A DNA stretch of 64,000 nt from a virus (lineage: Duplodnaviria > Heunggongvirae > Uroviricota > Caudoviricetes): positions 185,360-249,359 of the IMG/VR virus record IMGVR_UViG_3300032007_000006; one strand, 5' to 3'. The notes below the pieces were generated by a model that was given only the letters and a program-made list of their open reading frames with translations, was not told the origin of the DNA and ran no database searches. The position numbers and the translations under genes are program-made. This document shows positions 135 through 53,759 of the stretch, piece by piece (the stretch's first letter is position 1; each line of letters begins with the position of its first letter).

Positions 135-3134
135 CTAGGCTACATCCTTTTCCTTTGCAGATTCAATGGCTTCATGCTCCACTTCATCAGTATAGAACTG
201 CCTCTGTGGGAAGTCAAATGTCCTTCTTACAGGATGCCAGTTGGCAACCGTGGTCAAAAATCCAACCACCCTTGTCATATGATTGACGCAAGGCCTTCCG
301 CAGGTAGGACAGGTTTCTCCACCAACCCAGAGGTGCTTTTCTTCACAGCAATTGAGCAGATAGTTGATGGCCCAGTAGACAACGCCACATTTGGCCGCAT
401 ACTCCATCAGGGAGACCATCACCTTAGGATCCTTTATCTTCTCGCCAACATTGATGTGGGCAATGGCTCCACCAGAGAGGTGACGATCAAAGAGTCCCTG
501 CAGCTTCAGTCTGTCAAGCATGTCGGCCTTGACAATGAGTGGAATGAACTGATTGCTGTATAATGGAACGCCAATGTCATAGCCAAGCATCTTGTCCTTG
601 CTGGCCAGCTTGATTGCGGAAGTCTCTGCAGGAACCTGCTCTACATTGTGGGGAGCCTTGTACTGAGCTTCGGCGCGGTCGATCCATTTGTTGATGTTTT
701 TGAGAATCCTTAGAACAAGATTCTGTCCTTCTTCCGTGAGAATGTCCTTGCCAAGCAATTGAACGGCTTCATTGATTCCAACAACTCCAAATGTGCTGTA
801 CTGCTTACTGAGATCCATGTAGCCTTGGGTGTAGAGAGGAGCGGCACCAAGTTCAATGCGTTTTCGTACCAGCCGACGCTTGCAGGCATTGATCTTTGCG
901 GCAACAGCATAGATTTCCTCAAGACCTTCCATGAACTTGTCTACATCTCCCTTGGCCTTGTATGCAATGCGAGGAAGATTTGCAGTCACCACGCCAAGAG
1001 AGCCAATCTTGGTTGAACCTGCGCCAAAGGAGTTAAAGTATGGATTGTCCTTGTTTGAGCGCAGACGACAGCAGGAAGACAATGTGGACGTGTCTCCGTT
1101 GTATATGTTGATCCAGCCGTATTCAAGATTTGCATTGGCAATAAAGTTGAGGAACTCCTTGTCCTTGATAGAGCCGTCTTCCTCCTTGCAGAAACAGGCT
1201 GTAGTTACAGGGAACGTGATTGGACTTCTGGCCAGCTCCTCATTCATCACTTCAACATATATCTTCTGAAGAAGCTTCACAGTCTCTTTCTTGGCATTGT
1301 AGTCTGGGCAGAGGGAGTCAAGGAAGGTGTCATCATAGAGGGATATATTTGTGAATGCGGACTGATTTCCTCTAAACTCCCAGTTGACCGTGTAGACAAA
1401 TGCAGTCAATCTCTCCTTGATGTACTGCTCTGGGTTGCCAATCACTGTATGGCCATCCATTCCATTTTCAAGCAGAAGGTCTACATAGCGGGAAGCAACC
1501 AACAGAAGATCAGCGAAGCCAGTGGCTCCAAGAGTGGAATTTGCGGCTACTACAACAAACTGCTCAACCTGTCGTAGGAAAGTATCGAGTGATTTTGGTG
1601 GAAATACTCTAATTCGTTTAGAAATGCTGTCCAATCCATTGAATGCAATGTCATTTGTGCTGTAGTTAAAGCAGTTGTGGCCAATTATTCCATTGGTATA
1701 GAATCTGCCACTGGAAGTGGTGATGTCATAGACATACTTGTCGTTGAAATCAACTTCTTCCTTCTTTAAAACATGCATTGTTTCAAAACGACCATCAACT
1801 GCACGTTTCTTGAACAGCACGTCAACATGATCCTTTAGCTTGTAGGACATGTCAACAATGGAGTCATTTTCATCTGGAATAGAAAATGAAACTCTGTACA
1901 TTGGCTGCAGCTGGTCAATACGAGTATTTCCTCTTGCTGGAGCAACGCATGAAGTGCGAACACGATTCATTCCGATTCTAGTTGCAATTTCTGCAATTTG
2001 CTGCACCATCCCAAGACTAATCACGCGAATGTCCACAACGCCAGTATGCTTGTTTACCGTTCCATCAGTATCAATCAAACCAGCAACAAGAGCCTTTAAG
2101 GCATCAGTTTTCCAAATCAGACAGTCGCTTGGAAGTCTTTTGTTGAATGCACGAGTGCCAATGTTGACGGCATGCCAGAGTGCATCTTCCCTATGACCAA
2201 AATCTACAGAACGAACTGAATCTACATCATCAACCTTTCCAGTTGTAATGTTGTCATAAAGTTTTTCTATATGCTCCATGTAGGAACTTTCAAGAATGTT
2301 CTTTTGATGGAGAGTAAGCGTTGTTGGATTAAGGGAACCATCGCCAATCAAGGCTCCAGTAAGATAGGCTCTATTGAAGTCAACATCCATTGCATTTTGC
2401 ACAACATCAGCTGATGCAACGTCACATCCAAGGATTTCATCACCAATTTCAACATCGGAAGCAAACTTTTCGCTTCCATCAGCAAGAATGCAGGGATGAT
2501 CCTCGGTTACGCTAAAAACAGTACCTTTCTTCGTTTCAAAGCGGTACATCTTCTTTTTGTTCTTGTGACGAACTACTCGTTCAAGAGCAACCCATTTTCT
2601 GTCTTCATAGACTTCCAGTTCCAATGGCTTCAAGTCGGCTTCTTCCCAGTCCTCCTTTTTTACAACATAAGCCATGTTTTCAAAGAATAACTGTTCCAAA
2701 GTCATCATTCTAACTTTTTTGCCATCTTTGACAAGAATAGTTGTTCCAGGATGGTATGAATACGGACTGGCAATATCCGTAAAGTCGTTGATATAGATGT
2801 CGCCAGTCAACTGAGCTTCAATGATGTCATTTGCCGTTTCAAGACCATAGGCCTTCTTCAGCTCCTTCCACAGCAGAAAGTAGCTGTTGTAGCGTTTCAG
2901 TGGCTTTGGAAGTTCAAAGTTGTACTCAATGCCAGTCTTTGCCACGACATTGGCATTTGCATCAACAGACACGTCGGCTGATGGACCATTGGAGTTGAAG
3001 AAGTTCTTGCTGAACTTGTTCAAGTCCATCTGCTCTCCTATTCCATCAAGCGTGAACAGCTCCTTTCCATATTTCGACCAGAGATGCATCATCAAAGTGT
3101 CGAAGTCTGTGTCCCAAGAAATGCGAAAGTACAT
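135..3134 (-). CDS. nrdD: Anaerobic ribonucleoside-triphosphate reductase NrdD (class III RNR) interrupted by an intein; 999 aa
   Basis: C-terminal glycyl-radical motif TRVVGFL and the Zn-ribbon CPTCG..C; the length excess over ~600-aa NrdD is explained by the intein; GGAGGA SD before the ATG at 3134. Confidence 0.85.
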   Translation of the reverse strand: MYFRISWDTDFDTLMMHLWSKYGKELFTLDGIGEQMDLNKFSKNFFNSNGPSADVSVDANANVVAKTGIEYNFELPKPLKRYNSYFLLWKELKKAYGLETANDIIEAQLTGDIYINDFTDIASPYSYHPGTTILVKDGKKVRMMTLEQLFFENMAYVVKKEDWEEADLKPLELEVYEDRKWVALERVVRHKNKKKMYRFETKKGTVFSVTEDHPCILADGSEKFASDVEIGDEILGCDVASADVVQNAMDVDFNRAYLTGALIGDGSLNPTTLTLHQKNILESSYMEHIEKLYDNITTGKVDDVDSVRSVDFGHREDALWHAVNIGTRAFNKRLPSDCLIWKTDALKALVAGLIDTDGTVNKHTGVVDIRVISLGMVQQIAEIATRIGMNRVRTSCVAPARGNTRIDQLQPMYRVSFSIPDENDSIVDMSYKLKDHVDVLFKKRAVDGRFETMHVLKKEEVDFNDKYVYDITTSSGRFYTNGIIGHNCFNYSTNDIAFNGLDSISKRIRVFPPKSLDTFLRQVEQFVVVAANSTLGATGFADLLLVASRYVDLLLENGMDGHTVIGNPEQYIKERLTAFVYTVNWEFRGNQSAFTNISLYDDTFLDSLCPDYNAKKETVKLLQKIYVEVMNEELARSPITFPVTTACFCKEEDGSIKDKEFLNFIANANLEYGWINIYNGDTSTLSSCCRLRSNKDNPYFNSFGAGSTKIGSLGVVTANLPRIAYKAKGDVDKFMEGLEEIYAVAAKINACKRRLVRKRIELGAAPLYTQGYMDLSKQYSTFGVVGINEAVQLLGKDILTEEGQNLVLRILKNINKWIDRAEAQYKAPHNVEQVPAETSAIKLASKDKMLGYDIGVPLYSNQFIPLIVKADMLDRLKLQGLFDRHLSGGAIAHINVGEKIKDPKVMVSLMEYAAKCGVVYWAINYLLNCCEEKHLWVGGETCPTCGRPCVNHMTRVVGFLTTVANWHPVRRTFDFPQRQFYTDEVEHEAIESAKEKDVA
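1674..2759 (-). mobile_element. Intein inside nrdD carrying a LAGLIDADG homing endonuclease; the N-terminal boundary is approximate
   Basis: Block A-like SYHPGTTILVKDGKK, Block B TEDH, two LAGLIDADG motifs (LTGALIGDGSL and LVAGLIDTDGTV), C-terminal IIGHN followed by +1 Cys (CFNYS). Confidence 0.65.
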
Positions 3135-3171: not shown

Positions 3172-3180
3172 TATTTACAA
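3172..3180 (-). promoter_or_regulatory. TTGTAAATA late-promoter-like motif about 40 nt upstream of the nrdD ATG
   Basis: Same 9-mer recurs upstream of other genes in this window (see findings). Confidence 0.35.
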
Positions 3181-5072: not shown

Positions 5073-6155
5073 CTAGAAAAAGTTGTCTATAGAAGAGGAA
5101 CTGAATGTGGCGTCTTCAACTATTTCACATTTTTCATCTAAAAAACTGAATTTTCTATCTTCCACTTCAAGAAATGAAGTGTCATTCATGCATTCAGTTT
5201 CGTAGACTAAAGGAACCTTCCTGCAGAAGGAATCATCAACCACAAGAGGACAGGTATAGGTCCAGTTGACGCAATGATGAACCCTTCTAAAGGTTACGCC
5301 CATGCACGATACGGACACGGAAGACGGACATAGAACAGCAGAAGGAATGCTTTTGACATATGTACCAAAAGTCCGATACATGTCTGTAATTCCACCACTG
5401 GCCTGTTGAGTTGGAGTCTGGTCTATTGATGGCATGTCAAGAGTCAACGAAAGCTGACCACGCTTTCCATTCAGAATGTAGGCATTCACGTCATCATTGA
5501 ACCGTCCATAATATCTGTATTCCTTTCTGGTGTCTCCAAAAAAGACGTTCATGGCCTTCCATCGGTAGGAATATCTGGCCATGACTGAACCAACGCCGCC
5601 GATGAAGTCTCCAATCTGTGAAAAGGCCGTAATGTACAGCCATGGAGCAGAATTGAGAAGATGGAAATACTTGAGACAGCAATGATCAAAAACAGACAGT
5701 CCTTCGCTTTCTTCACGAGCAAAAAGGGCGGCCCTGATTCTTGGAAAGAATGCTTCTCCAGTGCTCTTCTTTATCATGGCCCTACGCATGACCACGTCAA
5801 CGTAGTCGTCATCCAGAACAATGAACCATCGGTATCCAAGTTCTCTTGCAATGCGGAACTGTTCATTTCTGGCCCATACTGTAGCCTTTCTTGAAAGGCT
5901 TTTTCCCCAGTAGCAGTCCACAAGATCCATGTCATATCGCTTTTCCGCTTCTTCCTTGCTGAAGACATAGATGGAGTCATCTCCAAACGTCTTTCTGTAT
6001 TCGCGAATGGTTGGATCATCATCTGAAAGGACAACTACACGCTTTGCATGAGAATTGACCTCATCCAGAAGCGCCCAAGTATGAGTCTTTAGAAATTCAG
6101 GACGAGTATAGGACAGAATCAATATAACATAGTCTTTAGGACTTTGTGGTCTCAT
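5073..6155 (-). CDS. GT-A-like (DxD) putative glycosyltransferase with a Cys-rich C-terminal region, paralog 1
   Basis: N-terminal VILILSYTRPEF (GT2-like), VVVLSDDD, and YWGKS..TVWARN.F.IA..GYRWFIVLDDDY; start taken at MRPQSPKDYV with a GAGGAG SD. Confidence 0.5.
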   Translation of the reverse strand: MRPQSPKDYVILILSYTRPEFLKTHTWALLDEVNSHAKRVVVLSDDDPTIREYRKTFGDDSIYVFSKEEAEKRYDMDLVDCYWGKSLSRKATVWARNEQFRIARELGYRWFIVLDDDYVDVVMRRAMIKKSTGEAFFPRIRAALFAREESEGLSVFDHCCLKYFHLLNSAPWLYITAFSQIGDFIGGVGSVMARYSYRWKAMNVFFGDTRKEYRYYGRFNDDVNAYILNGKRGQLSLTLDMPSIDQTPTQQASGGITDMYRTFGTYVKSIPSAVLCPSSVSVSCMGVTFRRVHHCVNWTYTCPLVVDDSFCRKVPLVYETECMNDTSFLEVEDRKFSFLDEKCEIVEDATFSSSSIDNFF

Positions 6156-6546
6156 CTTTGCTGTACTCCTCAATGCTTCTGTCCGAAATGTCACGCTTTA
6201 GCACCTTGTCTATATGTCCAGCACCTTTGACTACTCCATATTCAACGGCCTTGTCCAAATCAATGAGAACCATTGCCGACTTTTCCAGCAAATGCTTCAT
6301 TGCTGAACTGGCTTTTGTTGCATACCATTGAGCAGTCTTTCCATAATGAAACTTGATCCATCTGGACGCACACAGCTTCAAAAACGTTGCTTCCGACTTT
6401 GAAATTTCTCCTTTTTTCAAGGAACTGTTGATATAGTTTAAAAGTTCAACATAATTGTCCACGTCAACGCAATCGTTTAGAGAATAGTCGGCGTCAGATG
6501 GTTCAAAAGGAGGAATTGCAAATTTTGTAGTATACTTTTCTTCCAT
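6136..6546 (-). CDS. Hypothetical protein (136 aa), partner-protein paralog B
   Basis: Paralog of the 4521-5063 product; its 3' end overlaps the start of the GT-like gene. Confidence 0.6.
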   Translation of the reverse strand: MEEKYTTKFAIPPFEPSDADYSLNDCVDVDNYVELLNYINSSLKKGEISKSEATFLKLCASRWIKFHYGKTAQWYATKASSAMKHLLEKSAMVLIDLDKAVEYGVVKGAGHIDKVLKRDISDRSIEEYSKDETTKS

Positions 6547-6558
6547 TTACCCTCTTCC

Positions 6559-7626
6559 TCAGCAGAAGTCATTGATTGACGCTTCTTCAAGAGACATGCT
6601 TTCAACAACCTCACACTGTCTGTCCATAATCCTGTATTTTTTCTTCCCGCTGGGAACAGTTTTATTATGCATGCATTCCGACTGAAAGTCAAGAGGTTTT
6701 TCTCTGCACAGAGATTCGTCCACAACCATTGGACAGGTAGTGGACCATTTAATAAGATGATGCACCCTAGGAACAACTGAACCCATGCATGAAACTGATA
6801 CCGATGATGGACATGCAACTACAGAAGTCAAGCTCTTGATATAAGTTCCAAATGTCTTGTAGATATCAGTTATTCCACCAGCAGATTTCTGCGTTGGCTC
6901 CTGATTTATTACCACCTGCATCATGGTCAAGGACATTTGGCCAAGTTTTCCATTCAGAATGTATCCATTAACGTCATCATTCAATTTTCCGTAGTATCGG
7001 TACTCCTTTTCCGTATCACAGAAAAAGACGTTCATTGCCTTCCATCGGTACGGTATCCTGGTAAAAATTGAATTTATTCCACCAACAAAGTCTCCACACT
7101 GGGCCGTGGCCGTCACATGCATCCATGGCGCTGAATTGAGAACATTGAAATACTTGACACAGCACTTGTCAAATATTGACCCATGTTCATCGGAAGGAGC
7201 GAAAATAAGTTCCTTGAACGTAGGGAAAAACTCGGTCTTGTCATCATTGCGGATCATCTTCTTCCGCATGACAATTTCTCTGTAGTCATCATCCAGTACA
7301 ATGAACCATCTGTATCCAAGACTTCTCGCAATCTCAAATTGAGCATTTCTGGCCCATACTGTGGCCTTTCTTGTAAGACTTTTTCCCCAGTAGCAGTCTA
7401 TCGTGTCTATGTCATACTTTCTTTCAATTTCTACTTTGCTGAAAACTGCTATATTCTCCTTTCCATACATTGTTTCATATTCAGGAATGGTTTTGTCGTC
7501 ATCAGACAGAACAACAACTCTTCTGGCCTTGGACTTGACCTTGTCCAGAATATGCCATGTATGACTCTTTAAAAATTCTGGACGTTCATGAGAAAGTATC
7601 AAAATGACGAAGTCCTTGCAGTCCAT
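6559..7626 (-). CDS. GT-A-like (DxD) putative glycosyltransferase with a Cys-rich C-terminal region, paralog 2
   Basis: Roughly 50% identical to the 5073-6155 product across its length, including the LDDDY and C-terminal CPSSVSVSCMG..HH...W..TCP motifs. Confidence 0.5.
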   Translation of the reverse strand: MDCKDFVILILSHERPEFLKSHTWHILDKVKSKARRVVVLSDDDKTIPEYETMYGKENIAVFSKVEIERKYDIDTIDCYWGKSLTRKATVWARNAQFEIARSLGYRWFIVLDDDYREIVMRKKMIRNDDKTEFFPTFKELIFAPSDEHGSIFDKCCVKYFNVLNSAPWMHVTATAQCGDFVGGINSIFTRIPYRWKAMNVFFCDTEKEYRYYGKLNDDVNGYILNGKLGQMSLTMMQVVINQEPTQKSAGGITDIYKTFGTYIKSLTSVVACPSSVSVSCMGSVVPRVHHLIKWSTTCPMVVDESLCREKPLDFQSECMHNKTVPSGKKKYRIMDRQCEVVESMSLEEASINDFC

Positions 7627-11913: not shown

Positions 11914-12345
11914 CTAGGCATATTTTTTGTAGGTGTCAAGAAATGGCTTTCCGAGAACGTTTTCAATCGGCTGGCATTCGCTCCAGATTTCCGTTTCGTA
12001 GGAATTAAGACTTTCTGGCTCTGAAGCAATCTTCTCGGCTGAAACAAGCCTTTTTGTGGTGCAGTGCCTAATTCCTTCGGTACTGTGAAGCCAGTATCGA
12101 ATCTTCCACTCTTCATTTTCTGAATTTCTCACAAATACAGGCTGTCCAGGCTTGAATTTAGCCTCAATGCCTCTAGTGCCAAGAAGAGCTTCATTTCCAT
12201 TGTACGGAATGCAGTATTTCCAGCTGATGCCGTTAATGCACTTGAACGGACTTGTGGGTTCATTGTCATCTTCATACCCGAAAATGGTAAGATCCCAAGT
12301 AGAATTGCTGTGGTCTCTAACGAGAACAAGATCTCCAGTCTGCAT
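11914..12345 (-). CDS. Hypothetical protein (143 aa) with a repeated L/V-VR(D/N)S.N..W motif
   Basis: Start MQTGDLVLV with a GGAGGA SD, overlapping the upstream stop (TAATG); paralogous to the next gene. Confidence 0.45.
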   Translation of the reverse strand: MQTGDLVLVRDHSNSTWDLTIFGYEDDNEPTSPFKCINGISWKYCIPYNGNEALLGTRGIEAKFKPGQPVFVRNSENEEWKIRYWLHSTEGIRHCTTKRLVSAEKIASEPESLNSYETEIWSECQPIENVLGKPFLDTYKKYA

Positions 12346-12860
12346 TATGCCATATCCTCCTTCATTGAACAGGAAAATCCAGTTGCGGCGCACGGAACAA
12401 CCCTTGAATTGTATGGATTGGGATTTTCTGGTTCTGTATAGAATTTTGGAGTCCACCAGGACCATTCGCTTTCTGGTCTGGAAATATCGGCTTCCGGAAT
12501 AAGAAAGACATGCTTTTTCTCTTCCTCACGCTCTATGAAACTTGGAGGAATTGTGCATATCTCTACGCTTCCATCATCTGTCGTACCATAGTAGAATCCA
12601 ATCTTCTTCAAGCCATCAAGATCTCTGTAGCAGCACATGTCGCCTTTCTTCCAGCCATCGGCTGGAAGCGAAGTGTCCTGAAGATTTTCATGCCACTTGA
12701 GAGAAACCCATTCATTCCACTCGTTTCCCATGCTGTCTACGCATTTAATTTGATTTACCCAGGAAGTGTCAAACGTTTTAAAGACAGTCGTCTTCCATTG
12801 TTCATTTCTGGAATCCCTCACAAGAATGACTTCATTCGTTTTAATGTCGATTGAACTCAT
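12345..12860 (-). CDS. Hypothetical protein (171 aa), paralog of the 11914-12345 product
   Basis: ILVRDSRNEQWK versus LVLVRDHSNSTW and PVFVRNSENEEWK. Confidence 0.5.
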   Translation of the reverse strand: MSSIDIKTNEVILVRDSRNEQWKTTVFKTFDTSWVNQIKCVDSMGNEWNEWVSLKWHENLQDTSLPADGWKKGDMCCYRDLDGLKKIGFYYGTTDDGSVEICTIPPSFIEREEEKKHVFLIPEADISRPESEWSWWTPKFYTEPENPNPYNSRVVPCAATGFSCSMKEDMA

Positions 12861-12916: not shown

Positions 12917-13315
12917 TCAACCCCTCTGCTCCTCCTGCTCCTCCTGCTCCTCCTGCTCCTCGCAGAGTTTTGGCAGACTGACCTGAAGCCTATGCTCAAG
13001 CTCAAGGACACGAGCTCCCTGTGCGTCCAGACGCTCTGTAGTTGCCGTCCATCTTATTCTGTTTAGAACATTTTCCTCTTTCAGAGCATCAATCTCCTCA
13101 TCCAGTTTTAAAAATTTAGATCTCTTCTGGATGGCAGATTCTCTTAATTTTTCTTCAATATCATGAATGAAATTATTGGCGTTTGCATACAGACTTTTTG
13201 CTTCCAGTTCAGCATGATCTATGTCTTTTCGGAGAGTTTTTACGCCAGCGGCAAAAAAGACTGCGGCGGTACAGGCTCCTACAGCCGCAGATATTGAACA
13301 AAGCAGTATTTCCAT
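12917..13315 (-). CDS. Membrane-anchored coiled-coil protein (132 aa) with a C-terminal EEQ repeat
   Basis: N-terminal TM segment (LCSISAAVGACTAAVFFAAG), heptad-like region, (EEQ)x4 encoded by a ctcctgctc repeat at 12926-12960. Confidence 0.5.
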   Translation of the reverse strand: MEILLCSISAAVGACTAAVFFAAGVKTLRKDIDHAELEAKSLYANANNFIHDIEEKLRESAIQKRSKFLKLDEEIDALKEENVLNRIRWTATTERLDAQGARVLELEHRLQVSLPKLCEEQEEQEEQEEQRG

Positions 13316-13469
13316 TTCTTCTCCTACTGTTCGGAAAATATTACCTTAGTCAGTTCATTGCATGTGTTAAAGGCCAAATTCAACGGAAGACGGTATTTCC
13401 ACTCTTCAGTCCTATAGTAGGTGTATGGATCCATCATAATCTGGTATCTCACATCTCACAAGATGAAAA

Positions 13470-13499
13470 AGCCTAGCATTTTCTGCTAGGCCTGTCAAG
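13470..13499 (-). promoter_or_regulatory. Sigma70-like promoter TTGACAGG-N16-TAGGCT overlapping a hairpin
   Basis: -35 TTGACA, 17-bp spacer, -10 TAGGCT on the minus strand, upstream of the 12917-13315 gene. Confidence 0.45.
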
Positions 13500-13517
13500 C
13501 GAAAAAATATTAAAGTT

Positions 13518-14336
13518 TTATGACTTGAACTTCTTTAGTTTAGTCACTGGAAATATCTTTGTAGCATCTCTCAAAATCTTAGTCAAATCGGCACGTCTGT
13601 ACTTCACTGTGCGGCTGATGACCTTCTTCTGAGCGACCTTGCCAATGTAGGCATTGACTGCTATTGCCCATTCAAAGTCAAAAGTCTTCGAGTTGTTGAA
13701 TCCATTTGGATGATGACGCATCAACCATGCCATATGATCGCTGTCGCCAGTCAAGGCTACTTCAAAAACAATGGTTCGAGACTTGTTTACAAACAAATGG
13801 GAAACCCAGGTCTCCTTCCAGTAAGATTTCATGTTGATCACGTCAACCACAGTAGAGGCCTTTTCAATATGAGTGAATGGCTCTCCAAAAAAGTTTGTCA
13901 AATGAGAAACGCATCCAAAAAAGTCTATTTTCTTGAGACATTTCAGAATGGCCTCATAAATTGGACCACGAGTCTTGAGAATGTCCTGTCTAAATGTCTC
14001 TCTATTGGCATCTCTTGCAGCCCTTGAAGTTTTAAACGTCTGACCAGCCTGTCTATAGGCCTGTGCATTTCCACGCATGCTTCCAGTTCCTGCTGAAGCG
14101 CCAGCAACAGTCTTGACAGACTTGCCAATATATTGCTTGAGAACGTCATTCGCGGCATTAATGTCCTGCATCTTTTCAAGGCTGCCACCTCTGTCTGGAT
14201 GGTTTGTCAATGCAAGCTTCTTGTGAAGCTGACGCAGTTCAATGGCCGTTTTTGGAAACTCCGAGAGTCCAAAGATTTTCAGTGCGGTCATTGGATCCAT
14301 TATGGCTTCTTCAAGCCACTCTTTAAAGCTTTTCAT
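13518..14336 (-). CDS. J-domain (DnaJ-like, HPD) protein with an N-terminal capsid-targeting-sequence-like peptide MKSFKEWLEE (272 aa)
   Basis: LHKKLALTNHPDRGGS is a canonical J-domain helix II plus HPD; the N-terminus matches the T4 CTS consensus MKTYQEFIAE; paralog of the 14392-15213 product. Confidence 0.7.
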   Translation of the reverse strand: MKSFKEWLEEAIMDPMTALKIFGLSEFPKTAIELRQLHKKLALTNHPDRGGSLEKMQDINAANDVLKQYIGKSVKTVAGASAGTGSMRGNAQAYRQAGQTFKTSRAARDANRETFRQDILKTRGPIYEAILKCLKKIDFFGCVSHLTNFFGEPFTHIEKASTVVDVINMKSYWKETWVSHLFVNKSRTIVFEVALTGDSDHMAWLMRHHPNGFNNSKTFDFEWAIAVNAYIGKVAQKKVISRTVKYRRADLTKILRDATKIFPVTKLKKFKS

Positions 14337-14391
14337 ATTCCTACCTTTGCCTCATTCATCCACTGTCTAGAATCTTTCATATGCAATCCAA

Positions 14392-15213
14392 CTACTTCAT
14401 TGGAATTCCGTAATATGCTGTCTTTATCTTTGATGGAGAAAGCAGCTTTTTTGGATCCTTTAAAATGGAAAGGTCTACACTTTTATATTTTTTCTTTCTT
14501 AAAACAACTTTCTTGTTTGAAGCCCTGCCTTTATAGAAATCAACGGCGATTGCCCATTCAAAGTCAAAATTCTTTGAATTTTCAAATCCATTGGAAGTAT
14601 TACGCATGCGCCAGGCCATGTGATCCGTATCGCCAGTTAATTCAATGCCAAAAACTTCCATTCCAGACTTGTCTGTAAAGACATAGCGAATCCAAGGCTC
14701 CTTGGCATGATCCTTCATTTTAACAATTTCTTCAACAGTGGATATTTTTGTAAGCGTATGTTCAAATTTTATACCCAATACCTCTGAAAAGTGCTTTGCG
14801 AATACAAAAGTAGGAAGTTTTTCAAGAAAAGCCGCAATCGCTCTATATATTGGTCCATGCGTCTTGAGAATGTCCTTCTCAAATTCGTCACGATTTGCAT
14901 TGGCTCTGGCTCTTGAGGTTTTAAACGTTTCTCCAGCCTGCCTATATGTTTGAGATGCGCTGGTCCTTGTTCCACTTCTAGCAATGCTCTTGACGGACTT
15001 GCCAATCCACTGCTTCAATACGTCGTTAGCCGCATTGATGTCCTTCATCTTTTCAAGACTTCCACCACGATCAGGATGGTTTGTCAAGGCAAGCTTCTTA
15101 TGCAAGTTTCTTAATTCAGTTGCAGTCTTTGGAAATTCGGAAAGACCAAAAATTTTCAACGCTGTTTTTGGATCCATAATGGCTTCAATAAGCCAATCTT
15201 TGAATGATTTCAT
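14392..15213 (-). CDS. J-domain (HPD) protein with N-terminal CTS-like MKSFKDWLIE (273 aa), paralog
   Basis: LHKKLALTNHPDRGGS; preceded by an AGTAAATAA motif 20 nt upstream. Confidence 0.7.
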   Translation of the reverse strand: MKSFKDWLIEAIMDPKTALKIFGLSEFPKTATELRNLHKKLALTNHPDRGGSLEKMKDINAANDVLKQWIGKSVKSIARSGTRTSASQTYRQAGETFKTSRARANANRDEFEKDILKTHGPIYRAIAAFLEKLPTFVFAKHFSEVLGIKFEHTLTKISTVEEIVKMKDHAKEPWIRYVFTDKSGMEVFGIELTGDTDHMAWRMRNTSNGFENSKNFDFEWAIAVDFYKGRASNKKVVLRKKKYKSVDLSILKDPKKLLSPSKIKTAYYGIPMK

Positions 15214-15222
15214 TTTCAGCCT

Positions 15223-15798
15223 TTAGATCAAATTATTTACTTTAAAATGATGATAGAGCATTGCATGGGAATCAACAACGTCGGAAACTGGACTGGATGA
15301 ATTTTTTCTATGCAGAAGACCAGCCATGTCCATGTCATACTTCTGCCTATAGGCCTCAACCATTGCATCCTTATCTGCATTGCCTTTTCCAGCGAAAGTC
15401 TTCTTTACAGTCGTTGGAGGATACTTGTGAAACTCTATTCCTATGGAATGCATCAAAGTTTTTAACGTTCCAGTGCATTCTGCTATGTTGAAAACCAGAC
15501 CAGACGCTCCAAGGGCATAGTCCTCCATGGCAACAACCTTAACGTCCTCAAGCACCATAATGGAAATGAACCAGTCGGCCAGAACAAAATAGCGTTCTTC
15601 TGGACATTCAATATTAAACTGCGTTTGAGGAAATACATTGGGAACGTCCCATTCCTTTCTCAGCAGTTCTTCCTTCTTTGAAACGTTGTTCTGGTTGAAC
15701 CAGTATCTGCATGTCTTGTGTTCAAATGGACCATCATCGTCATCATAAATGCACAAGGCTGGACAGTTGATTGAATAGTCTATTCCTCCATACACCAT
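15223..15798 (-). CDS. RuvC-like Holliday junction resolvase (191 aa)
   Basis: GIDYS (catalytic Asp region), VAMEDYA (Glu region), KKTFAGKGNADKDAMVEA (the KQ.V.G.G.A.K.QV equivalent), DVVDSHAML (DxxD); the ATG MVYGG was chosen because the ORF-track start is a TTG. Confidence 0.55.
   Translation of the reverse strand: MVYGGIDYSINCPALCIYDDDDGPFEHKTCRYWFNQNNVSKKEELLRKEWDVPNVFPQTQFNIECPEERYFVLADWFISIMVLEDVKVVAMEDYALGASGLVFNIAECTGTLKTLMHSIGIEFHKYPPTTVKKTFAGKGNADKDAMVEAYRQKYDMDMAGLLHRKNSSSPVSDVVDSHAMLYHHFKVNNLI
15233..15241 (-). promoter_or_regulatory. AGTAAATAA late-promoter-like motif upstream of the CTS J-domain gene
   Basis: Variant of the recurring TGTAAATA motif. Confidence 0.3.
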
Positions 15799-15856
15799 AT
15801 GGCCTCCATAAAAGAAGAGGAGGAGCAATAGCTCCTCCTTCAACCTCTAGACTAAT

Positions 15857-17404
15857 TTAGTCCTTGTTCATCCATATGTCAATGACCGTCTTGACCTTTT
15901 CCCATATCCGCTTTTCGCTAATTCGCCCTTCGTATTCCATCATGTACCATTCCTCAATTCTTTTCATGATGTTCTTCACGTCAAAGTTCTTGTTCATGAA
16001 CATCATGCGGACATTGGCATCAACAATGTCCCTATACTGCTTTTCAAGAAAGGCCATTATCATGCTGGGAGTGGACGAAGCGAACCAGTTCCTTACAAAT
16101 GTCTTGGCTTCATCTTCATCTTCATCGTTTATTCCCTTTCCAATGACTTTGAAGAACTCCCTTACAAGATCATCCAGTTCTTCTACACTGTCTTTTTCGG
16201 CAGATTCACTAGTCTTTTCAGTGTTCCAGTTGATTTTCCTGCTGGTTGGAGAAAGATCGAACCCAAACACTTCAGTCTGACAAACGTCTCCATCTTCATC
16301 GAGATACTTCACGACATAGACATTGGAACCGTAGTCAAAAGCCATCACCTGAACAACGTTTCCGTTGTAGAGTTCCGCATACTCTCCAGATTCAAATTTC
16401 CTTTCAGGCTCATTTCCATCGGAAATACGCTCAAGCAGATGATCCTTCTTGATCCACCATTCAACAGGTTCATACCCATCAAAGAAGCGGATCTTGTATG
16501 GATATCCAATTTCATCATTGGAATCAACTACAATCACGCGACCAATGACATTCTCTTCATCGGAATTTTCAAAGTCATATTCCTCAAGATTGGCTTTAAT
16601 CAAGTCTCCAACGCCAATTTCAGGAGTAAATTCTTCATCCTTCCAGACGGTTCTTTCCAGAGGAGCATTGATTTCCGAAACGACCTTGTAGCGGCAGCAT
16701 CTGGCCTTCGCATTGCCATAGTCATTCGGAATGGAAACAACGTCAGCCGGATTAATCTTGACCAGAACAAGCCTGTCGCCTAGACCAGAAAAAGACTTGA
16801 CATAGGAATAGGCGCAGAAGTGAAGTCCAGAAGAGCAGGTGTTGTTGGGATCATCATCAACTTCATTGCGTGGCATTTCCACTATAGCTCCAATGGAATT
16901 GTCAAACTTGCCAGTATGCTTATCCTTGAAATTGCCAGAAACTACCTTGTAGGCCATGATATCGCCATCTTCGGCGATTGTGAATCCACCTTCCTCCTGA
17001 CATGCTTCAATGAAAGCCCAAAGCTGATTTCTAATGCGATAGGAAGGATTTTCCCTCATCTTCCGCACGAAATTCACCATTGGATCAAGAGGCAGTCCTT
17101 CATCATGCATGGACTGTATCTGCCTGCAGAGAGAGCCATATATCGGTTCCCCGTCAATGTAGATGGTGTCGCTTCCGAAGCTGATGCCAGAACCTTCAAT
17201 ATTGGCCTTTTCGCACCACTCGCGAATTTCTTCATTATTCTTCACGTTAAGGACTTCCTTCAAGTCCTTCCAAGGAGCCTTTTTCTTGATAAGTTCAAGA
17301 ATTTTTTCACGCTTTTCGGAATCAGAATCGCCAATAAGCCAGGTTCTTCCTTCTCCACACACAAACAGCATGCTGCCAGTAGACATGTAGGTATATTCTT
17401 CCAT
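15857..17404 (-). CDS. rIIB: rIIB-like protein (about 280-aa rIIB core plus an about 230-aa C-terminal extension), 515 aa
   Basis: Core GLHFCAYSYVKSF...LVKINPADVVSIPNDYGNAKARCCRYKVV resembles the conserved rIIB C-terminal block as I recall it; AAGGAGG SD before MEEYTYM. Confidence 0.45.
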   Translation of the reverse strand: MEEYTYMSTGSMLFVCGEGRTWLIGDSDSEKREKILELIKKKAPWKDLKEVLNVKNNEEIREWCEKANIEGSGISFGSDTIYIDGEPIYGSLCRQIQSMHDEGLPLDPMVNFVRKMRENPSYRIRNQLWAFIEACQEEGGFTIAEDGDIMAYKVVSGNFKDKHTGKFDNSIGAIVEMPRNEVDDDPNNTCSSGLHFCAYSYVKSFSGLGDRLVLVKINPADVVSIPNDYGNAKARCCRYKVVSEINAPLERTVWKDEEFTPEIGVGDLIKANLEEYDFENSDEENVIGRVIVVDSNDEIGYPYKIRFFDGYEPVEWWIKKDHLLERISDGNEPERKFESGEYAELYNGNVVQVMAFDYGSNVYVVKYLDEDGDVCQTEVFGFDLSPTSRKINWNTEKTSESAEKDSVEELDDLVREFFKVIGKGINDEDEDEAKTFVRNWFASSTPSMIMAFLEKQYRDIVDANVRMMFMNKNFDVKNIMKRIEEWYMMEYEGRISEKRIWEKVKTVIDIWMNKD

Positions 17405-17598
17405 TACTTGCCCGCCTCCTTTATTTTCTTGTAGAGTGCCCGCAGAATTGCTTCGTCTTCTTCCGATACGTCGTTGCACATGGCCTGCATGAAGTCAACG
17501 AGATCATCGGCAGAATCAAAATTAGCAAGATCAACAGGCCTCTGGCTTTTTGCAGGCGTTATCACAGTTCCATCAACCTGATACTTGTCTTTGTCCAT
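17404..17598 (-). CDS. Hypothetical small protein (64 aa)
   Basis: ORF only. Confidence 0.35.
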   Translation of the reverse strand: MDKDKYQVDGTVITPAKSQRPVDLANFDSADDLVDFMQAMCNDVSEEDEAILRALYKKIKEAGK

Positions 17599-19964: not shown

Positions 19965-20666
19965 TTATACGCTTTTGTAGAACTTCTTCGTGCAGTGGAA
20001 ATGACTGCTTCCATCAGCAGAAGTGTGATCAATTTTAAATTCGTAGTCGTTGGGGTCATTCTTGACAATATCCACTTTAGTTGTTTTGTCATTTACCTGA
20101 TCCTTAGGGAAGAAATCTAAAACCTTTTTAATCTCATCATTAACGATGTCACATCCAGTGCATTTTCTTGCTGGAGTTTTTTCTTTCTCTTCCTTCTTCT
20201 TTGTTTCACATCCGCACTGACATTTTTCACTGCTGGACTTTTTGGAAGAATTGCGCCAGTCAATCCAGCAAGGCATGCCAAAATCCTTGAACAAAGAATC
20301 TTCAAAAAATCTATTGAATGGACGCAACATGTCCTTCCAGTCTCTCACTGGAGATACCCAATCATCAAAAAACGAATTAACAGCAGGAATATTGTCCTTT
20401 TTGTCTTCCTTTTTTGATTCTACAGACTTTTCCACATTCTTTCTGGAAGCAAGAATGTAGGCATCTTCTGGACTGAGACCATATTTGAAAATGTAGTCAT
20501 CATACATCTTTCTGCATTCATCGCTCATTTTTCTGGATGGGCAGAAGGCTTCTCTAGTAAGATTAAGCGCCTTGGTAGAATCAAGACCTTTGCTAAGGTA
20601 GTCATTATACATCTTGTTGAACTTTTCATACTCGGCTACGTTTTCAAAAACTCTTTTCTCAATCAT
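19965..20666 (-). CDS. Hypothetical protein (233 aa) with a CQCGC...CTGC cluster
   Basis: ORF only. Confidence 0.45.
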   Translation of the reverse strand: MIEKRVFENVAEYEKFNKMYNDYLSKGLDSTKALNLTREAFCPSRKMSDECRKMYDDYIFKYGLSPEDAYILASRKNVEKSVESKKEDKKDNIPAVNSFFDDWVSPVRDWKDMLRPFNRFFEDSLFKDFGMPCWIDWRNSSKKSSSEKCQCGCETKKKEEKEKTPARKCTGCDIVNDEIKKVLDFFPKDQVNDKTTKVDIVKNDPNDYEFKIDHTSADGSSHFHCTKKFYKSV

Positions 20667-20683
20667 GACTGTTCTCCTTCAAT

Positions 20684-21802
20684 CTATTGATTTTGGAAGA
20701 CATAGTATGTATCGTTGAATTCCGCCAGCTTGACTTCCGTATCTGGAGCAATGACTGCATCAGTAGGAGCAAGAGCCGTTACTTCCTTTCCCTTTGCATC
20801 TTCCAGAATGACAACGTTTACGCTCATTCCAAGAATGAGCAGAGGCATCTTGACATGCTTTACCTTTGTGGCCTTGAATTTGTGAAACTTCAGAAAGCCA
20901 TTTTCCTCGCATATGTATGATACCACTCTTGAACCTTGGACGCATAGGAAATTCTTGTAGCCAGCATTGAAAAGACTTATGAATCTCTTGTCATCAAACA
21001 GTTCAGGACGCTTGAGAATAAAGGCCTTTTCAATTGTGACTACCATCACTGGGAGTTCATCTTCAACCCAAATCTCGCAAATCTGAGGATAGTCGATGCC
21101 AGCAAAATTCAGCGATGGTTGGCTAGTCTTCTTTATAAAATCTAATATAACACTGGCCTTCTTTTTGTCAAGCATTTTTTTCTTGTCAAAAATAATATTT
21201 CCTATCTTCCAGTACATTTTAAGCTTCTTCACTGGAAGACAGGTCTTGGTGAACTTGAGCACCTTGTCATGCTTGTGATTCATTGCGAAGGAAAACAGAG
21301 AATGAACTTCCCTGGCCAGATGTCCATTCTCGTACATCTTCTTCAGGCATGGAAGAATTTCCTTAGCATACTTCTTGAATACGCAGTTGACAGCAAATTC
21401 ATATTCATCCTGGGAAAGCGTTTCGGCCATGTATCTTACAAAATATTCACGATGCTTTTTCTCGGAGAAAAGACCACGGTCAAAATAGGACATGAACATA
21501 TTGAGAATGGTCAATTCATTGATTGAACCGTGACGATACTTGAGATCCTTGAGATTGTTTCTTTCCTCCGCAAGCAGTTCATCCGATGGAATAATGTCGG
21601 AAGCCATGATGCATATGCCATAGTAGGCCCACCAGGCATTTCTAAGCAGAACGCGCATGAAGGCCTCAAATCTGTCCTGCTCTTGAGACGCTTCAAGCAG
21701 ATAGTCAAACACCAGCGTATGCGAAATGCTGTTGATGCGTTTTGGACCTTCCATAATTTCCAGAAGGCTGTACTTTATTTCATCCTTTTCCATATTCCTC
21801 AT
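20684..21802 (-). CDS. Hypothetical protein (372 aa)
   Basis: ORF only. Confidence 0.45.
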   Translation of the reverse strand: MRNMEKDEIKYSLLEIMEGPKRINSISHTLVFDYLLEASQEQDRFEAFMRVLLRNAWWAYYGICIMASDIIPSDELLAEERNNLKDLKYRHGSINELTILNMFMSYFDRGLFSEKKHREYFVRYMAETLSQDEYEFAVNCVFKKYAKEILPCLKKMYENGHLAREVHSLFSFAMNHKHDKVLKFTKTCLPVKKLKMYWKIGNIIFDKKKMLDKKKASVILDFIKKTSQPSLNFAGIDYPQICEIWVEDELPVMVVTIEKAFILKRPELFDDKRFISLFNAGYKNFLCVQGSRVVSYICEENGFLKFHKFKATKVKHVKMPLLILGMSVNVVILEDAKGKEVTALAPTDAVIAPDTEVKLAEFNDTYYVFQNQ

Positions 21803-31130: not shown

Positions 31131-31139
31131 TATTTACAA
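31131..31139 (-). promoter_or_regulatory. TTGTAAATA late-promoter-like motif upstream of the 30050-31096 gene
   Basis: CATTGTAAATATTTCAG context identical to the copy at 53692-53700. Confidence 0.4.
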
Positions 31140-37782: not shown

Positions 37783-38514
37783 CTATTTCCAGCAGTGTGC
37801 AAATGGATGATGTGGATATTCCACCGTCTTTCTGTCTTCTCTGGCCTGAAGTCTTTGGTTTTTTGAAAACATGAATGATGGATATTCAAAGGGAATGTGA
37901 AGATCCTGTGATAGATAGTCCACTTTATAGGAGTAGTATGTCAATGTAGAGGTCCAAATGATTGGTTCGGCTGATTGGCTTTCAAATGGAACAGTGTCTA
38001 TGGATGTTGGAAGAACCGAATGAAACATCATTCTGATGATTGGAACTTTGGCATTGTTGAGAATGACCAGCATCATTCTGGTGTAGCAGTCTTCATTGTA
38101 GAATCTGTATTGATTCTCAAACATCCATTTGTATAAGGTGAAGTATGAGGTGAAATTTTCATCCATTATGAATGAAAGCATCAAGTCTTCATAGGTCATT
38201 GAATGGGCAAAGACTGGAAGCTTGTCTGCTCCCTGTGGACGTTCAATGTTGATGTTCTTGGCCGTGACACCAGGAAGATTGAACTTCTGGAGAAAGTAGA
38301 CTATGTTGGGAATGTTCTCAAAGACGCAGTAGAAGTTGGAAATTGAAGCGGCCGAGATGTCCATAATGTCATTCTCGCTCAACCATGAAGTGTCTTCTTC
38401 TGTTGCGGCGCATTCCACATTTCCTTCACACATTTTTGGCTCCACATATGAAGGAGCCATCAGTCGTCCCTTTCCTTTCTTCTTTCCGAACTGTATTTGA
38501 TTTTTTGGAGCCAT
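37783..38514 (-). CDS. Hypothetical protein (243 aa), probably structural
   Basis: ORF only; alternative start MAPSYVEPKM. Confidence 0.4.
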   Translation of the reverse strand: MAPKNQIQFGKKKGKGRLMAPSYVEPKMCEGNVECAATEEDTSWLSENDIMDISAASISNFYCVFENIPNIVYFLQKFNLPGVTAKNINIERPQGADKLPVFAHSMTYEDLMLSFIMDENFTSYFTLYKWMFENQYRFYNEDCYTRMMLVILNNAKVPIIRMMFHSVLPTSIDTVPFESQSAEPIIWTSTLTYYSYKVDYLSQDLHIPFEYPSFMFSKNQRLQAREDRKTVEYPHHPFAHCWK

Positions 38515-38554: not shown

Positions 38555-38585
38555 ATGTCATTTCTATGCTATTTACGCCGCAATA

Positions 38586-39846: not shown

Positions 39847-39855
39847 TTGTAAATA
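39847..39855 (+). promoter_or_regulatory. TTGTAAATA late-promoter-like motif 21 nt upstream of the 39877 ATG
   Basis: Recurring motif. Confidence 0.35.
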
Positions 39856-39876: not shown

Positions 39877-40734
39877 ATGAGTGACGTTTATGTATCCAAG
39901 TATCTAAGAACAGATATACCAGCTTCCAGAAGAAAACCAAAAACGCCTGAAGTGTATGATCCGCATGCGTCAAGGTGTCTTCGTGGACTTAATCCATATC
40001 TTTCCTTTAATAATGAGAATTATGACACTTCAAATGAACAGGAAATAGTCAAGCGGCTCCAGGAAGAGCAAATTCAGATGTTTGGCTACAAAGGCCTTTA
40101 CATTCTTAAAGGACATAATACAGTAGACAAATTGTTTGGAGAAGACATTGGTGCATCATATGACTACTGCTTTCCTATTGAGTTCTTTCCTGAGGATGGT
40201 GATGGTCCAGAAAATTCCTGGGCTGTTGAGATGTATGGATTCTCACAGCTTGATACAATTGCAATACATATTGCCTACGACAGACTGAATGAAGAGATTG
40301 CAAGACTTGGCGACAAGGACAGAAAATTTCCTCTTCCAGGAGATCTGTTTAGATATAATTTGACAAAGCAGCTTTTTGAAATTAAATGGGTTTCTGGAAG
40401 ACTTCACAAGTTTATGAAGGGATGTCCAACAATGTACAAGATTGAAATGCAGCTCTTCAATGTAGGTCAGGAAACGTTCAATACTGGAAATGAAGATATT
40501 GACTTTCTCAATACATTCAATCAAACATATCAATATCCCAATGGAGACAATGAAGAAATTAGAAAGGAATCCGCTGAACTGGCACAACCAGAACCAAATA
40601 TATGGAATCTCAATCTTCAAAATCCTGTTTCATATGAACCAGAACTTGAACCAAGACATTCAAAAAAGATTGAACGTCTTGAACCACAAAAAAGACGCAT
40701 AGGAAATAAAATTCGTTTTGAAAAAGTAAAATAA
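39877..40734 (+). CDS. Hypothetical protein (285 aa), probably virion-associated
   Basis: ORF in a late-type context. Confidence 0.45.
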   Translation: MSDVYVSKYLRTDIPASRRKPKTPEVYDPHASRCLRGLNPYLSFNNENYDTSNEQEIVKRLQEEQIQMFGYKGLYILKGHNTVDKLFGEDIGASYDYCFPIEFFPEDGDGPENSWAVEMYGFSQLDTIAIHIAYDRLNEEIARLGDKDRKFPLPGDLFRYNLTKQLFEIKWVSGRLHKFMKGCPTMYKIEMQLFNVGQETFNTGNEDIDFLNTFNQTYQYPNGDNEEIRKESAELAQPEPNIWNLNLQNPVSYEPELEPRHSKKIERLEPQKRRIGNKIRFEKVK

Positions 40735-40756: not shown

Positions 40757-41143
40757 ATGAAATCATTTTTAGAATACTGCTACGACAAAAAGATGGAGTC
40801 AAATGTTGGATCAATTAAGGAAGAGGCCGACTTTGGCGAAATCAATATAGGTGGATTCATTGAACCAGTAATGAGGAAGATGGCTTCTCTCATTGGCGAT
40901 GAAGGACTGCAGGCTGTCATAGACGTTGTGAGTGGATATGGAAATGAATCGCCTGCCGACTATAAAACGGCTAAGAAAGATCTTATGAAGGCTCTCTGGA
41001 GTTCTGACATTCCAGATGACTGCAGCTGGGCCGAAAAGCAGTTTCCTTTCTGGGCTGGATGTCTTGGCAGAGCCTGCAAGGAGAATGATCCTTCAATTCT
41101 GGCCAAGGTACTTACAGATTTGCAGAAAGAGGTGAAAAAATAA
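40757..41143 (+). CDS. Putative internal (capsid-targeted) protein with N-terminal CTS-like MKSFLEY (128 aa)
   Basis: N-terminal CTS-like peptide; AATAAATAT motif upstream. Confidence 0.45.
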   Translation: MKSFLEYCYDKKMESNVGSIKEEADFGEINIGGFIEPVMRKMASLIGDEGLQAVIDVVSGYGNESPADYKTAKKDLMKALWSSDIPDDCSWAEKQFPFWAGCLGRACKENDPSILAKVLTDLQKEVKK

Positions 41144-41634
41144 TGAAAACATTCAAGGAATATCTTCAAGAGCATGATGAATCATGTCGTATTGATGAGG
41201 GAATGTTTGACAAGCTTTTCCAGAAAGCCATGGAAAAACTGGCCATTCTCATCGGTCCAAACAGAATGGCCACTCTTGAAAAGATTCTTTCCAGATGGAA
41301 AGGAAAGGACATAGACAAGAGAACATTGAAAAATGAACTTGAGGCTTCCTTTAAGACTTTTAAGCTTGATCCTGCGGCTTCAAAGGAAATTCAATCTGAA
41401 TGCGTAGATGAAGATGAAGAGCCAGTTGATGAAAGCATTGTTGATCTGCTCATTTGCGCCAATTATGGTTTTTGGACTGCAATCATGGTAAAGGCCGCTC
41501 TTGGTCTTGGAATTCCGATTGTTCTTGGCATTATTCGTGCCGCTATTCAAGCTTCTGCTTCTGCAAAACGCAAGAAAAATGCTTTTGCTAAAGCCAAACA
41601 GGATTTGGATCAACTAAACAAGCAGCTGCGGTAA
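41143..41634 (+). CDS. Putative internal protein with N-terminal CTS MKTFKEYLQE (163 aa); C-terminal hydrophobic segment
   Basis: Near-perfect match to the T4 CTS MKTYQEFIAE. Confidence 0.5.
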   Translation: MKTFKEYLQEHDESCRIDEGMFDKLFQKAMEKLAILIGPNRMATLEKILSRWKGKDIDKRTLKNELEASFKTFKLDPAASKEIQSECVDEDEEPVDESIVDLLICANYGFWTAIMVKAALGLGIPIVLGIIRAAIQASASAKRKKNAFAKAKQDLDQLNKQLR

Positions 41635-48798: not shown

Positions 48799-48828
48799 AG
48801 GGAGCCTTTTGGCTCCCTATATTTTTAC
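48799..48828. terminator. Bidirectional terminator (agggagccttttggctccct plus atattttta)
   Basis: 8-bp stem, T-rich tail. Confidence 0.6.
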
Positions 48829-49379
48829 TTTATCTTGAATGAAACCAATTTTCCATCCTTGAACTTGGCTCGAAGTTTTCCCGCCATGGAGCAGGAGATA
48901 TTAATTCTTGAAGTGCCATCATCCTTCTTTTTCTTGAGATAGATGTCCATTAGCATGGACTTGTCCATCTGCGTCTTAAAGATGCTTTCCTTGGGAGCGT
49001 TTTCATCCTCCCTCCATTCGATAAAGTCTTCAGACTGAAGCATCTTGGCCAGATCATTGACAGCGGTGTCAATAGTTTCTCCAATTTCAAGGACTTCCCT
49101 CAGATTCTGAAGGATTCCAAACCAGTGAAGAGCAAAGGATTTCTTTCGCTCATAGTCATTAAGGATTTCAAGGATTTTTTCGTTTGGATTGTTGACATTT
49201 GTCTGCATTTCGGAGGCCAGCTTGTCTCCAGCGGCAAACAGTTCAATCAAGTCATTTTCAGACTTTTCCTTCCAGAATGTTTCTGGATGGTTGCTCTTCA
49301 TCCAGGCCTTCAAGGCTCTGGCAGAGGCTGTTGGATCATGTACTAGGGCTTCTGTGAGCCATTTCTGGAATGAAGTCAT
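48825..49379 (-). CDS. Putative internal protein with N-terminal CTS MTSFQKWLTE (184 aa)
   Basis: CTS-like N-terminus; AGGAG SD. Confidence 0.5.
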   Translation of the reverse strand: MTSFQKWLTEALVHDPTASARALKAWMKSNHPETFWKEKSENDLIELFAAGDKLASEMQTNVNNPNEKILEILNDYERKKSFALHWFGILQNLREVLEIGETIDTAVNDLAKMLQSEDFIEWREDENAPKESIFKTQMDKSMLMDIYLKKKKDDGTSRINISCSMAGKLRAKFKDGKLVSFKIK

Positions 49380-49974: not shown

Positions 49975-49983
49975 TATTTACAG
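49975..49983 (-). promoter_or_regulatory. CTGTAAATA late-promoter-like motif
   Basis: Upstream of the CTS gene at 49951. Confidence 0.35.
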
Positions 49984-53691: not shown

Positions 53692-53700
53692 TATTTACAA
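53692..53700 (-). promoter_or_regulatory. TTGTAAATA late-promoter-like motif upstream of the tail-fibre gene
   Basis: CATTGTAAATATCAAG context. Confidence 0.4.
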
Positions 53701-53759
53701 TGATTGAAGATAGACGACTGTTTTATAAAATGTAAATAATCGAACATAAAACATCTCAT

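Follow-up and report, generated by a model that had tools for sequence, protein, structure and literature searches.

Tandem Rki-family J-domain proteins with a capsid-targeting-like N-terminus: candidate injected co-chaperones of a deep-branching T4-like phage

We analyzed a 64,000-nucleotide stretch of viral DNA (IMG/VR record IMGVR_UViG_3300032007_000006, positions 185,360 to 249,359; hereafter, the window), which belongs to a deep-branching T4-like phage that is distant from T4 itself. Its minus strand carries two adjacent genes, here called J1 and J2, each encoding a short N-terminal tag that resembles the capsid-targeting sequence (CTS) found on T4's internal head proteins, a J-domain, and a C-terminal domain of the type found in Rki, a J-protein of phage RB43. 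On the evidence laid out below, we consider it probable, with some reserve, that J1 and J2 are made late, packaged into the head, trimmed by the prohead protease, and injected into the host as Rki-like co-chaperones. The parts of the gene pair are as follows.

14392–15213, minus strand: J1, first gene of the pair, a 273-residue Rki-family J-domain protein with a CTS-like N-terminus
15184–15213, minus strand: J1 tag (residues 1–10, MKSFKDWLIE), with a predicted prohead-protease site L-I-E/A
15004–15177, minus strand: J1 J-domain (residues 13–70), with the His-Pro-Asp (HPD) motif as residues 46–48 at 15070–15078
14395–14916, minus strand: J1 C-terminal alpha/beta domain (residues ~100–273), a homolog of the Rki C-terminal domain, ending ...DPxxLxPxxK[IL]K
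13518–14336, minus strand: J2, second gene of the pair, a 272-residue paralog of J1
14307–14336, minus strand: J2 tag (MKSFKEWLEE/A)
14127–14300, minus strand: J2 J-domain
13521–14027, minus strand: J2 C-terminal domain
15233–15241, minus strand: late-promoter-like motif AGTAAATAA, with its GTAAATA core at 15234–15240, ending 20 nt before the J1 ATG at 15213
13469–13493, minus strand: intrinsic-terminator-like hairpin (10-bp stem and T run) just past the J2 stop codon

Aligned from end to end, the two proteins share 60% identity (E = 1e-114); the figure is 83% in the N-terminal tag (residues 1–12) and 92% in the J-domain (residues 13–75), falling to 51% in the linker (residues 76–110) and 48% in the C-terminal domain (residues 111–273). 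The strong terminator-like hairpin 3' of J2 closes the two-gene unit.

Are J1 and J2 genuine J-domain proteins? Both contain the stretch LHKKLALTNHPDRGGS. Scored as single sequences against the Pfam DnaJ model, they reached only 19.7 and 22.4 bits, below the gathering threshold of 27.8, and the question was therefore decided with a family profile and a structure model. The family comprised 28 relatives from a search of 5.8 billion proteins, and its alignment contained 28 sequences (J1, J2, and 26 relatives), every one of which matched PF00226 and kept the HPD motif. The best match of the family profile was the Tim14/Pam18 J-domain (PDB 2guz_A; E = 6.2e-11), with the HPD motifs aligned, followed by the J-domains of DnaJ, Sis1, and T-antigen. 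In the AlphaFold2 model, the HPD (residues 46–48) lies between two helices formed by residues 31–45 and 53–67. These results confirm the J-domain that a first-pass annotation of this DNA had claimed for both proteins. The likeness to Tim14 is limited to the ~60-residue J-domain; Tim14 is a mitochondrial membrane-anchored protein, unlike J1 and J2.

The same annotation had described the C-terminal ~170 residues as unique, which proved wrong. A tblastn search of the phage collection returned weak similarity running past the J-domain, to ~570-residue "DnaJ-domain" proteins that Slopekvirus, Pseudotevenvirus, and Karamvirus phages encode between gene 46 and frd, which is the Rki locus. When the window family was compared by hhalign with an alignment of RB43 Rki and its counterparts from KP27, EBPL, Aeromonas phages CC2 and 65.2, Variovorax phage V45v66, and Desulfovibrio phage 7757, the match covered essentially all of Rki (probability 99.85%, E = 8e-31, 221 columns), and the C-terminus alone, with the J-domains removed, still matched (probability 96%, E = 4.5e-9, 128 columns). 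Furthermore, an AlphaFold model of the isolated C-terminal domain (predicted local distance difference test (pLDDT) score, 90) retrieved, by Foldseek in BFVD, the J-proteins of Aeromonas phages 65 (E = 6.5e-5) and 65.2, as well as a 569-residue protein whose length matches the KP15/KP27-type Rki fusion. By these comparisons, J1 and J2 can be placed as full-length members of the Rki family and classed as type III J-domain proteins with an Rki-type C-terminal domain.

Rki (RB43 ORF057w, 237 residues; Perrody et al., 2012) was the first phage J-protein to be characterized. Homologs are present in Aeromonas phage 65, KP15/KP27, and RB16, and the RB16 and KP15 versions form a fusion with the downstream ORF058w. 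Rki binds DnaK, its toxicity depends on DnaK and on the HPD, and it stabilizes sigma32 (PMC3486835). Both Rki and the window proteins come from T4-like phages and share one full-length architecture, namely an N-terminal J-domain with an HPDRGGS-type HPD, then a linker that varies, and last an alpha/beta C-terminal domain, which in the Rki type ends DPxxLFPxxKLKK. Pairwise identity is ~31–34%, over an aligned stretch that reaches only to about residue 160 of 273. Unlike Rki, the window proteins have a full tag, a late-type motif upstream, and tandem paralogs; the RB43 and KP27 Rki proteins start MINEKM and MITESKM, where only an I-x-E remnant of the tag is left. An internal start at the invariant Met13, which would give an untagged isoform of the window proteins, was considered and set aside: this Met is conserved as part of helix I throughout the Rki family, and no clear ribosome-binding site was seen by eye ahead of it.

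The capsid-targeting N-terminus, likewise claimed for both proteins at the outset, held up as a specific match to the CTS of T4 IPII and IPIII that unrelated open reading frames (ORFs) of the window share. J1 begins MKSFKDWLIEA and J2 MKSFKEWLEEA (common form, MKSFK(D/E)WLxEA); the T4 tags, as read from NC_000866, are MKTYQEFIAEA in IPII and IPIII and MKTFKEF... in IPI. The J tags agree with the T4 tag at Met1, Lys2, Ser/Thr3, the aromatic residue 4, Glu/Asp6, the aromatic residue 7, Leu/Ile8, Glu10, and Ala11. The tag ends in the [LI]-x-E motif at which cleavage is predicted (residues 8–11; L-I-E/A in J1 and L-E-E/A in J2). In T4, the decapeptide CTS anchors Alt and the internal proteins in the scaffolding core and is removed by gp21, which cuts after the Glu (PMC3012670, PMC5694885); the presence of this sequence on IPI, IPII, IPIII, and Alt goes back to Mullaney and Black (1996), as cited in those two papers. 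The AlphaFold2 model gave a low pLDDT of 42 for J1 residues 1–10, so the tag is not part of the J fold.

We then asked how specific this tag is in the window. The strict pattern M[KT][STG][FY]..[FWY][LIV].E starts seven window ORFs of at least 100 residues, compared with none in 200 codon shuffles, and a slightly looser pattern adds an eighth, at 56586–57710. Once the Met is dropped, the strict pattern has only eight matches across all six translated frames of the window, and the tag is therefore almost exclusively N-terminal. As a control, the strict pattern was run over 97 kb of T4, where it picked only ipIII, ipII, and gene 61.1. The last of these (NC_000866, 18966–19130, minus strand) encodes 54 residues beginning MKTFKEFIKE. 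The tagged window ORFs other than J1 and J2 are listed below.

49388–49951, minus strand: unrelated ORF, tag MKSFSTYLAE/S, with GTAAATA 23 nt upstream of its ATG
48825–49379, minus strand: unrelated ORF, tag MTSFQKWLTE/A, next gene in the unit of 49388–49951
41143–41634, plus strand: unrelated ORF, tag MKTFKEYLQE/H, in a unit headed by the neck-protein gene and TGTAAATA at 39849
54789–55124, plus strand: unrelated ORF, tag MKSFADYVNE/A, downstream of the endolysin gene, in a unit headed by TGTAAATA at 53732
56586–57710, plus strand: 374-residue ORF, tag variant MNTFNEYIFE/A, with TGTAAATA 20 nt upstream

Beyond the tag, the tagged ORFs other than J1 and J2 have no significant similarity to one another, and Pfam and PHROG searches returned no function for the tagged non-J ORFs, except for a Hint/intein domain in a further one at 61821–62195. 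The tag appears to behave as a portable address label across unrelated ORFs, and we regard the five ORFs listed above as candidates for internal head proteins or ejected proteins. A hydrophobic C-terminal segment is found in the protein of 41143–41634. At 61821–62195 (plus strand), an ORF that starts with the tag-like MKGYIEWLNE continues as a Hint/intein N-terminal domain (PF07591, E = 9e-10) before it stops, and a 385-residue ORF of no family match follows immediately (62198–63355, plus strand). The former is perhaps no true tagged protein, and the two, which lie behind a TGTAAATA motif, may be one gene that is split or interrupted by an intein.

The likeness to the T4 internal head proteins extends over 10–11 N-terminal residues (MKSFKEWLEEA versus MKTYQEFIAEA), and at the position of gp21 cleavage, [LI]-x-E precedes an Ala or Ser. 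In T4, too, the tag is common to otherwise unrelated small proteins of one phage and is found at variable, multi-copy loci. The cargo differs, being a J-domain co-chaperone in J1 and J2 and a restriction inhibitor, DNA-binding protein, or ADP-ribosyltransferase in T4. Moreover, packaging is established for the T4 proteins and predicted for J1 and J2, in a phage only distantly related to T4.

Does the tag extend to the wider family? When 1.84 billion representative proteins were searched with a profile, 224 of them matched below E = 1e-10, and the figures that follow come from the listed representatives. Among the 142 more distant ones whose J-domain is N-terminal, most have their HPD at residue 43–47, which implies an extension of 10–12 residues ahead of helix I. 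The 39 representatives with the HPD at residue 45 gave the consensus M-K-[TS]-F-[KR]-[QE]-[FY]-L-x-E (K in 33, F in 30, F/Y in 31, L in 25, and the final E in 37 of the 39), with examples such as MKTYKEFISE and MKSYKQFIAE. The extension is missing in only ~9 of the 169 sequences scanned; of these nine, three belong to the close family and may be genes that were called too short. The tagged form is the majority state of a large metagenomic family and no peculiarity of this phage. It is also present in cultured phages: Desulfovibrio phage 7757 (MKSFKEYISEATM), Variovorax phage V45v66 (MNRYESYLREVRM), and Aeromonas phages CC2 (MSKMFNELFES) and 65.2 (MSKTFSELFGS). The J-proteins of CC2 and 65.2 are CC2_351 and APU01510, and that of Desulfovibrio phage 7757 is encoded by the ORF at 70011–71084. 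In the two Aeromonas phages, the J gene adjoins genes 3 and 1, which is the neighborhood of ipI in T4.

In the window, the gene order upstream of the pair, on the same strand, is as follows.

15223–15843, minus strand: RuvC-like resolvase gene, directly upstream of J1
15857–17479, minus strand: rIIB-like gene, upstream of the RuvC-like gene

This order (rIIB, RuvC-like gene, J array) is kept in a 224-kb NCBI contig with two J copies and in a related 384-kb ENA contig (L003; WILK20-1_SAMEA7016611_METAG-scaffold_22) with four tandem copies, all four of which have the tag and the HPD. GCA_016648615.1 is likewise a syntenic relative. The fourth paralog of L003 (9289–9990, 233 residues) keeps the tag and J-domain, and its Rki-type domain is replaced by a different C-terminal domain of ~110 residues; proteins of ~405 residues carry both the Rki-type and the extra C-terminal domain (P0021, P0029, and P0030, listed with the fourth paralog). 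These arrangements show that domains have been shuffled among the tagged J-proteins. Such a pattern, in which the tag and J-domain stay conserved while the C-termini diverge fast or are exchanged, is consistent with a family of effectors that is under diversifying selection.

When would these genes be expressed? The T4 late promoter, which we take to be TATAAATA, is absent from the window. The core GTAAATA, usually preceded by T, is present in 11 copies, at the following positions.

Minus strand: 3172–3178, 15234–15240, 31131–31137, 38570–38576, 49975–49981, 53692–53698
Plus strand: 39849, 43566, 53732, 56559, 61782

Base composition predicts ~16 copies, so GTAAATA is not enriched, and its signal consists in position and orientation: all 11 copies lie 8–55 nt upstream of a same-strand ATG ORF, six of them with a gap of 19–21 nt. 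The motif heads the genes of the neck protein (39877–40734) and a tail-tube-like protein (37783–38514), an endolysin-containing unit, a 967-residue ORF, nrdD, three tagged ORFs, and J1, and the remaining tagged ORFs lie further along same-strand gene strings behind such motifs. Because of this position and the structural and lysis genes downstream, TGTAAATA is probably the late promoter of this lineage, and motif position and gene content together point to the J genes being late genes. In the 20.8 kb of L003 that were scanned, the motif occurs only three times: twice at 19 nt upstream of the ATGs of the first two J paralogs and once upstream of nrdD. The first-pass annotation had placed a late-type motif 20 nt upstream of the downstream copy; the motif and the distance stand, but the gene that it heads is the higher-coordinate copy, J1, which is transcribed first.

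Two further observations concern this class of motif. At 53692–53738, two GTAAATA copies face apart as a divergent promoter pair. Late-promoter-like heptamers are also seen upstream of rki-type genes, namely CATAAATAC in RB43 (L008 ~2405–2412) and KP27 (L001 ~3935) and CTAAATAC in Aeromonas phages CC2 (L005 ~2955) and 65.2 (L009 ~2415); in RB43, the CATAAATAC heptamer overlaps the published early promoter region.

How might such proteins act? In the reading that we favor, the pair would be transcribed from a putative late promoter, AGTAAATA, which differs slightly from the TGTAAATA motif seen elsewhere in the window, with transcription ending at the terminator. The 10-residue tag MKSFK(D/E)WLxE would then dock the proteins in the scaffolding core of the prohead, where a gp21-type prohead protease would cut after the Glu of L-x-E and leave a mature protein that starts at Ala11, its J-domain intact. 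Upon ejection with the DNA, the HPD J-domain would engage the host DnaK ahead of any phage gene expression, and, by analogy with Rki, DnaK would be diverted and sigma32 stabilized. The diverged C-terminal domains (48% identical) may give the paralogs different client or target specificities.

Could J1 and J2 instead act only inside the infected cell, as Rki-like proteins that are never packaged, with the N-terminal helix an ancestral regulatory, oligomerization, or translation-start element? This is the main rival, and although we judge it distinctly less probable than delivery with the DNA, several points in its favor weigh at the same time against packaging and injection. Rki, the sole characterized relative, is not known to be packaged or injected; it is a cytoplasmic protein expressed from an early promoter and made 5–8 min after infection (PMC3486835). 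The tag, being so widespread in the family, could be intrinsic to it, an ancestral feature with another role. Early read-through into the pair is possible, since a sigma70-like promoter lies at 15854–15882, upstream of the RuvC-like gene only, and no terminator precedes J1. When T4 gp17 to gp24, gp67, and gp68 were used as tblastn queries, no head-module gene was found in the 64-kb window, and for this reason, the protease was checked only in a relative: Desulfovibrio phage 7757, a cultured phage with a tagged J-protein, has homologs of gp20, gp21, and gp23 and a second ORF bearing the tag. A further point against the favored reading is that the late-promoter role of GTAAATA is drawn only from its position and the genes downstream, that nrdD is also preceded by it, and that the J1 copy has an A in place of the usual T before the core. 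Packaging, cleavage, and injection are all steps that we infer.

Against a purely intracellular role stand four features of the tag and its promoter. One and the same 10-residue pattern opens at least five window ORFs that are otherwise unrelated and is nearly exclusive to N-termini; it agrees with the T4 CTS as defined by experiment, protease site included; disorder relative to the J fold is predicted for it; and the pair has its own late-type motif, conserved in a related phage. The early promoter of Rki has no counterpart immediately before the J pair, where the upstream motif is late-type (AGTAAATA), and early expression describes how Rki is expressed rather than a defining trait of the protein family.

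Packaged and injected J-proteins could also serve counter-defense rather than heat-shock control, occupying DnaK or displacing DnaJ and so blinding chaperone-dependent immune sensors. Paralog diversification fits such a role, T4 internal proteins are typically anti-defense factors (PMC3012670), and bNACHT25 reportedly senses phages through DnaJ, according to work cited in PMC12619734; the only functional data for the family, however, point to sigma32 stabilization (PMC3486835), and we regard this variant as quite improbable. Least probable of all is that the tag brings the proteins to the prohead to act there, in assembly or maturation (for example, by recruiting DnaK to the scaffolding core): the tag and a late-type promoter are equally compatible with this, and J-proteins classically localize Hsp70 to its site of action (PMC3486835, introduction), but every T4 protein known to bear the tag, namely Alt and IPI to IPIII, is an ejected effector (PMC3012670, PMC5694885), tandem, fast-diverging paralogs at two to four per phage resemble arms-race effectors more than assembly factors, and the untagged Rki acts away from heads.

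What would late-made, injected Rki-like co-chaperones mean for T4-like phages at large? Proteins that a phage carries in its head go to work before its first gene is read, and those known from T4 are restriction inhibitors and an ADP-ribosyltransferase. If our reading is true, a packaged J-domain protein would add chaperone hijacking to this first-strike repertoire, and control over DnaK and sigma32 would be needed from the first seconds of infection. Whether T4-like phages hold a large, undescribed class of virion-packaged, injected co-chaperones, built of CTS, J-domain, and Rki-type domain and seizing DnaK at DNA entry, we see as evenly balanced; within such a class, Rki would be a derived member that lost its tag and became immediate-early, and the arrays of two to four copies with swapped C-termini would be the mark of an arms race such as the one at the ipI locus of T4.

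J-proteins in T4-like phages (Rki) and CTS-mediated packaging are already known. The initial statement that injected J-proteins are undescribed in T4-like phages stands within the literature searched: J-proteins as such were on record (PMC3486835), injected ones were not found there, and a search for the CTS or internal head proteins together with J-domain or DnaJ found no paper linking them. Nor did we find described the combination of tag and J-domain, its majority status, or the standing of Rki as the untagged exception in a widespread tagged family, as which it is now recast. The tagged homologs in cultured phages make packaging directly testable; no relevant virion proteome of the Aeromonas carriers came up in a literature search. 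In addition, the tag pattern and the TGTAAATA motif can serve in practice to pick out candidate ejected proteins and late genes across this deep-branching T4-like lineage.

The rest of the window fits this placement. It carries rIIA, rIIB, the gp44 clamp loader, nrdD, a T4 neck protein, and a tail-tube-like protein, and the clamp loader is ~41–43% identical to the versions of cyanophages, Pelagibacter phage HTVC008M, and Desulfovibrio phage 7757. A megablast search of 13000–16000 against the phage collection gave no match, and the phage therefore has no close cultured relative. Downstream of the J pair, two overlapping ORF calls (11914–12465 and 12345–12860, both minus strand) encode small proteins with similar repeated ...VLVRD..N..W... 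modules, whose orthologs hold the same position in L003 (11312–11830 and 11827–12264). The NrdD-like gene (135–3134, minus strand), which stands behind a TGTAAATA motif, is unusually long at 999 residues; because its L003 ortholog (20104–20810) is annotated with an intein splicing domain, the window's nrdD likely contains an intein. Finally, tandem paralogs at 5073–6194 and 6559–7626 (both minus strand) match the beta-glucosyl-HMC (hydroxymethylcytosine) alpha-glucosyltransferase family (TAGT), which suggests that the DNA of this phage is hypermodified, with glucosylated hydroxymethyl-pyrimidines.

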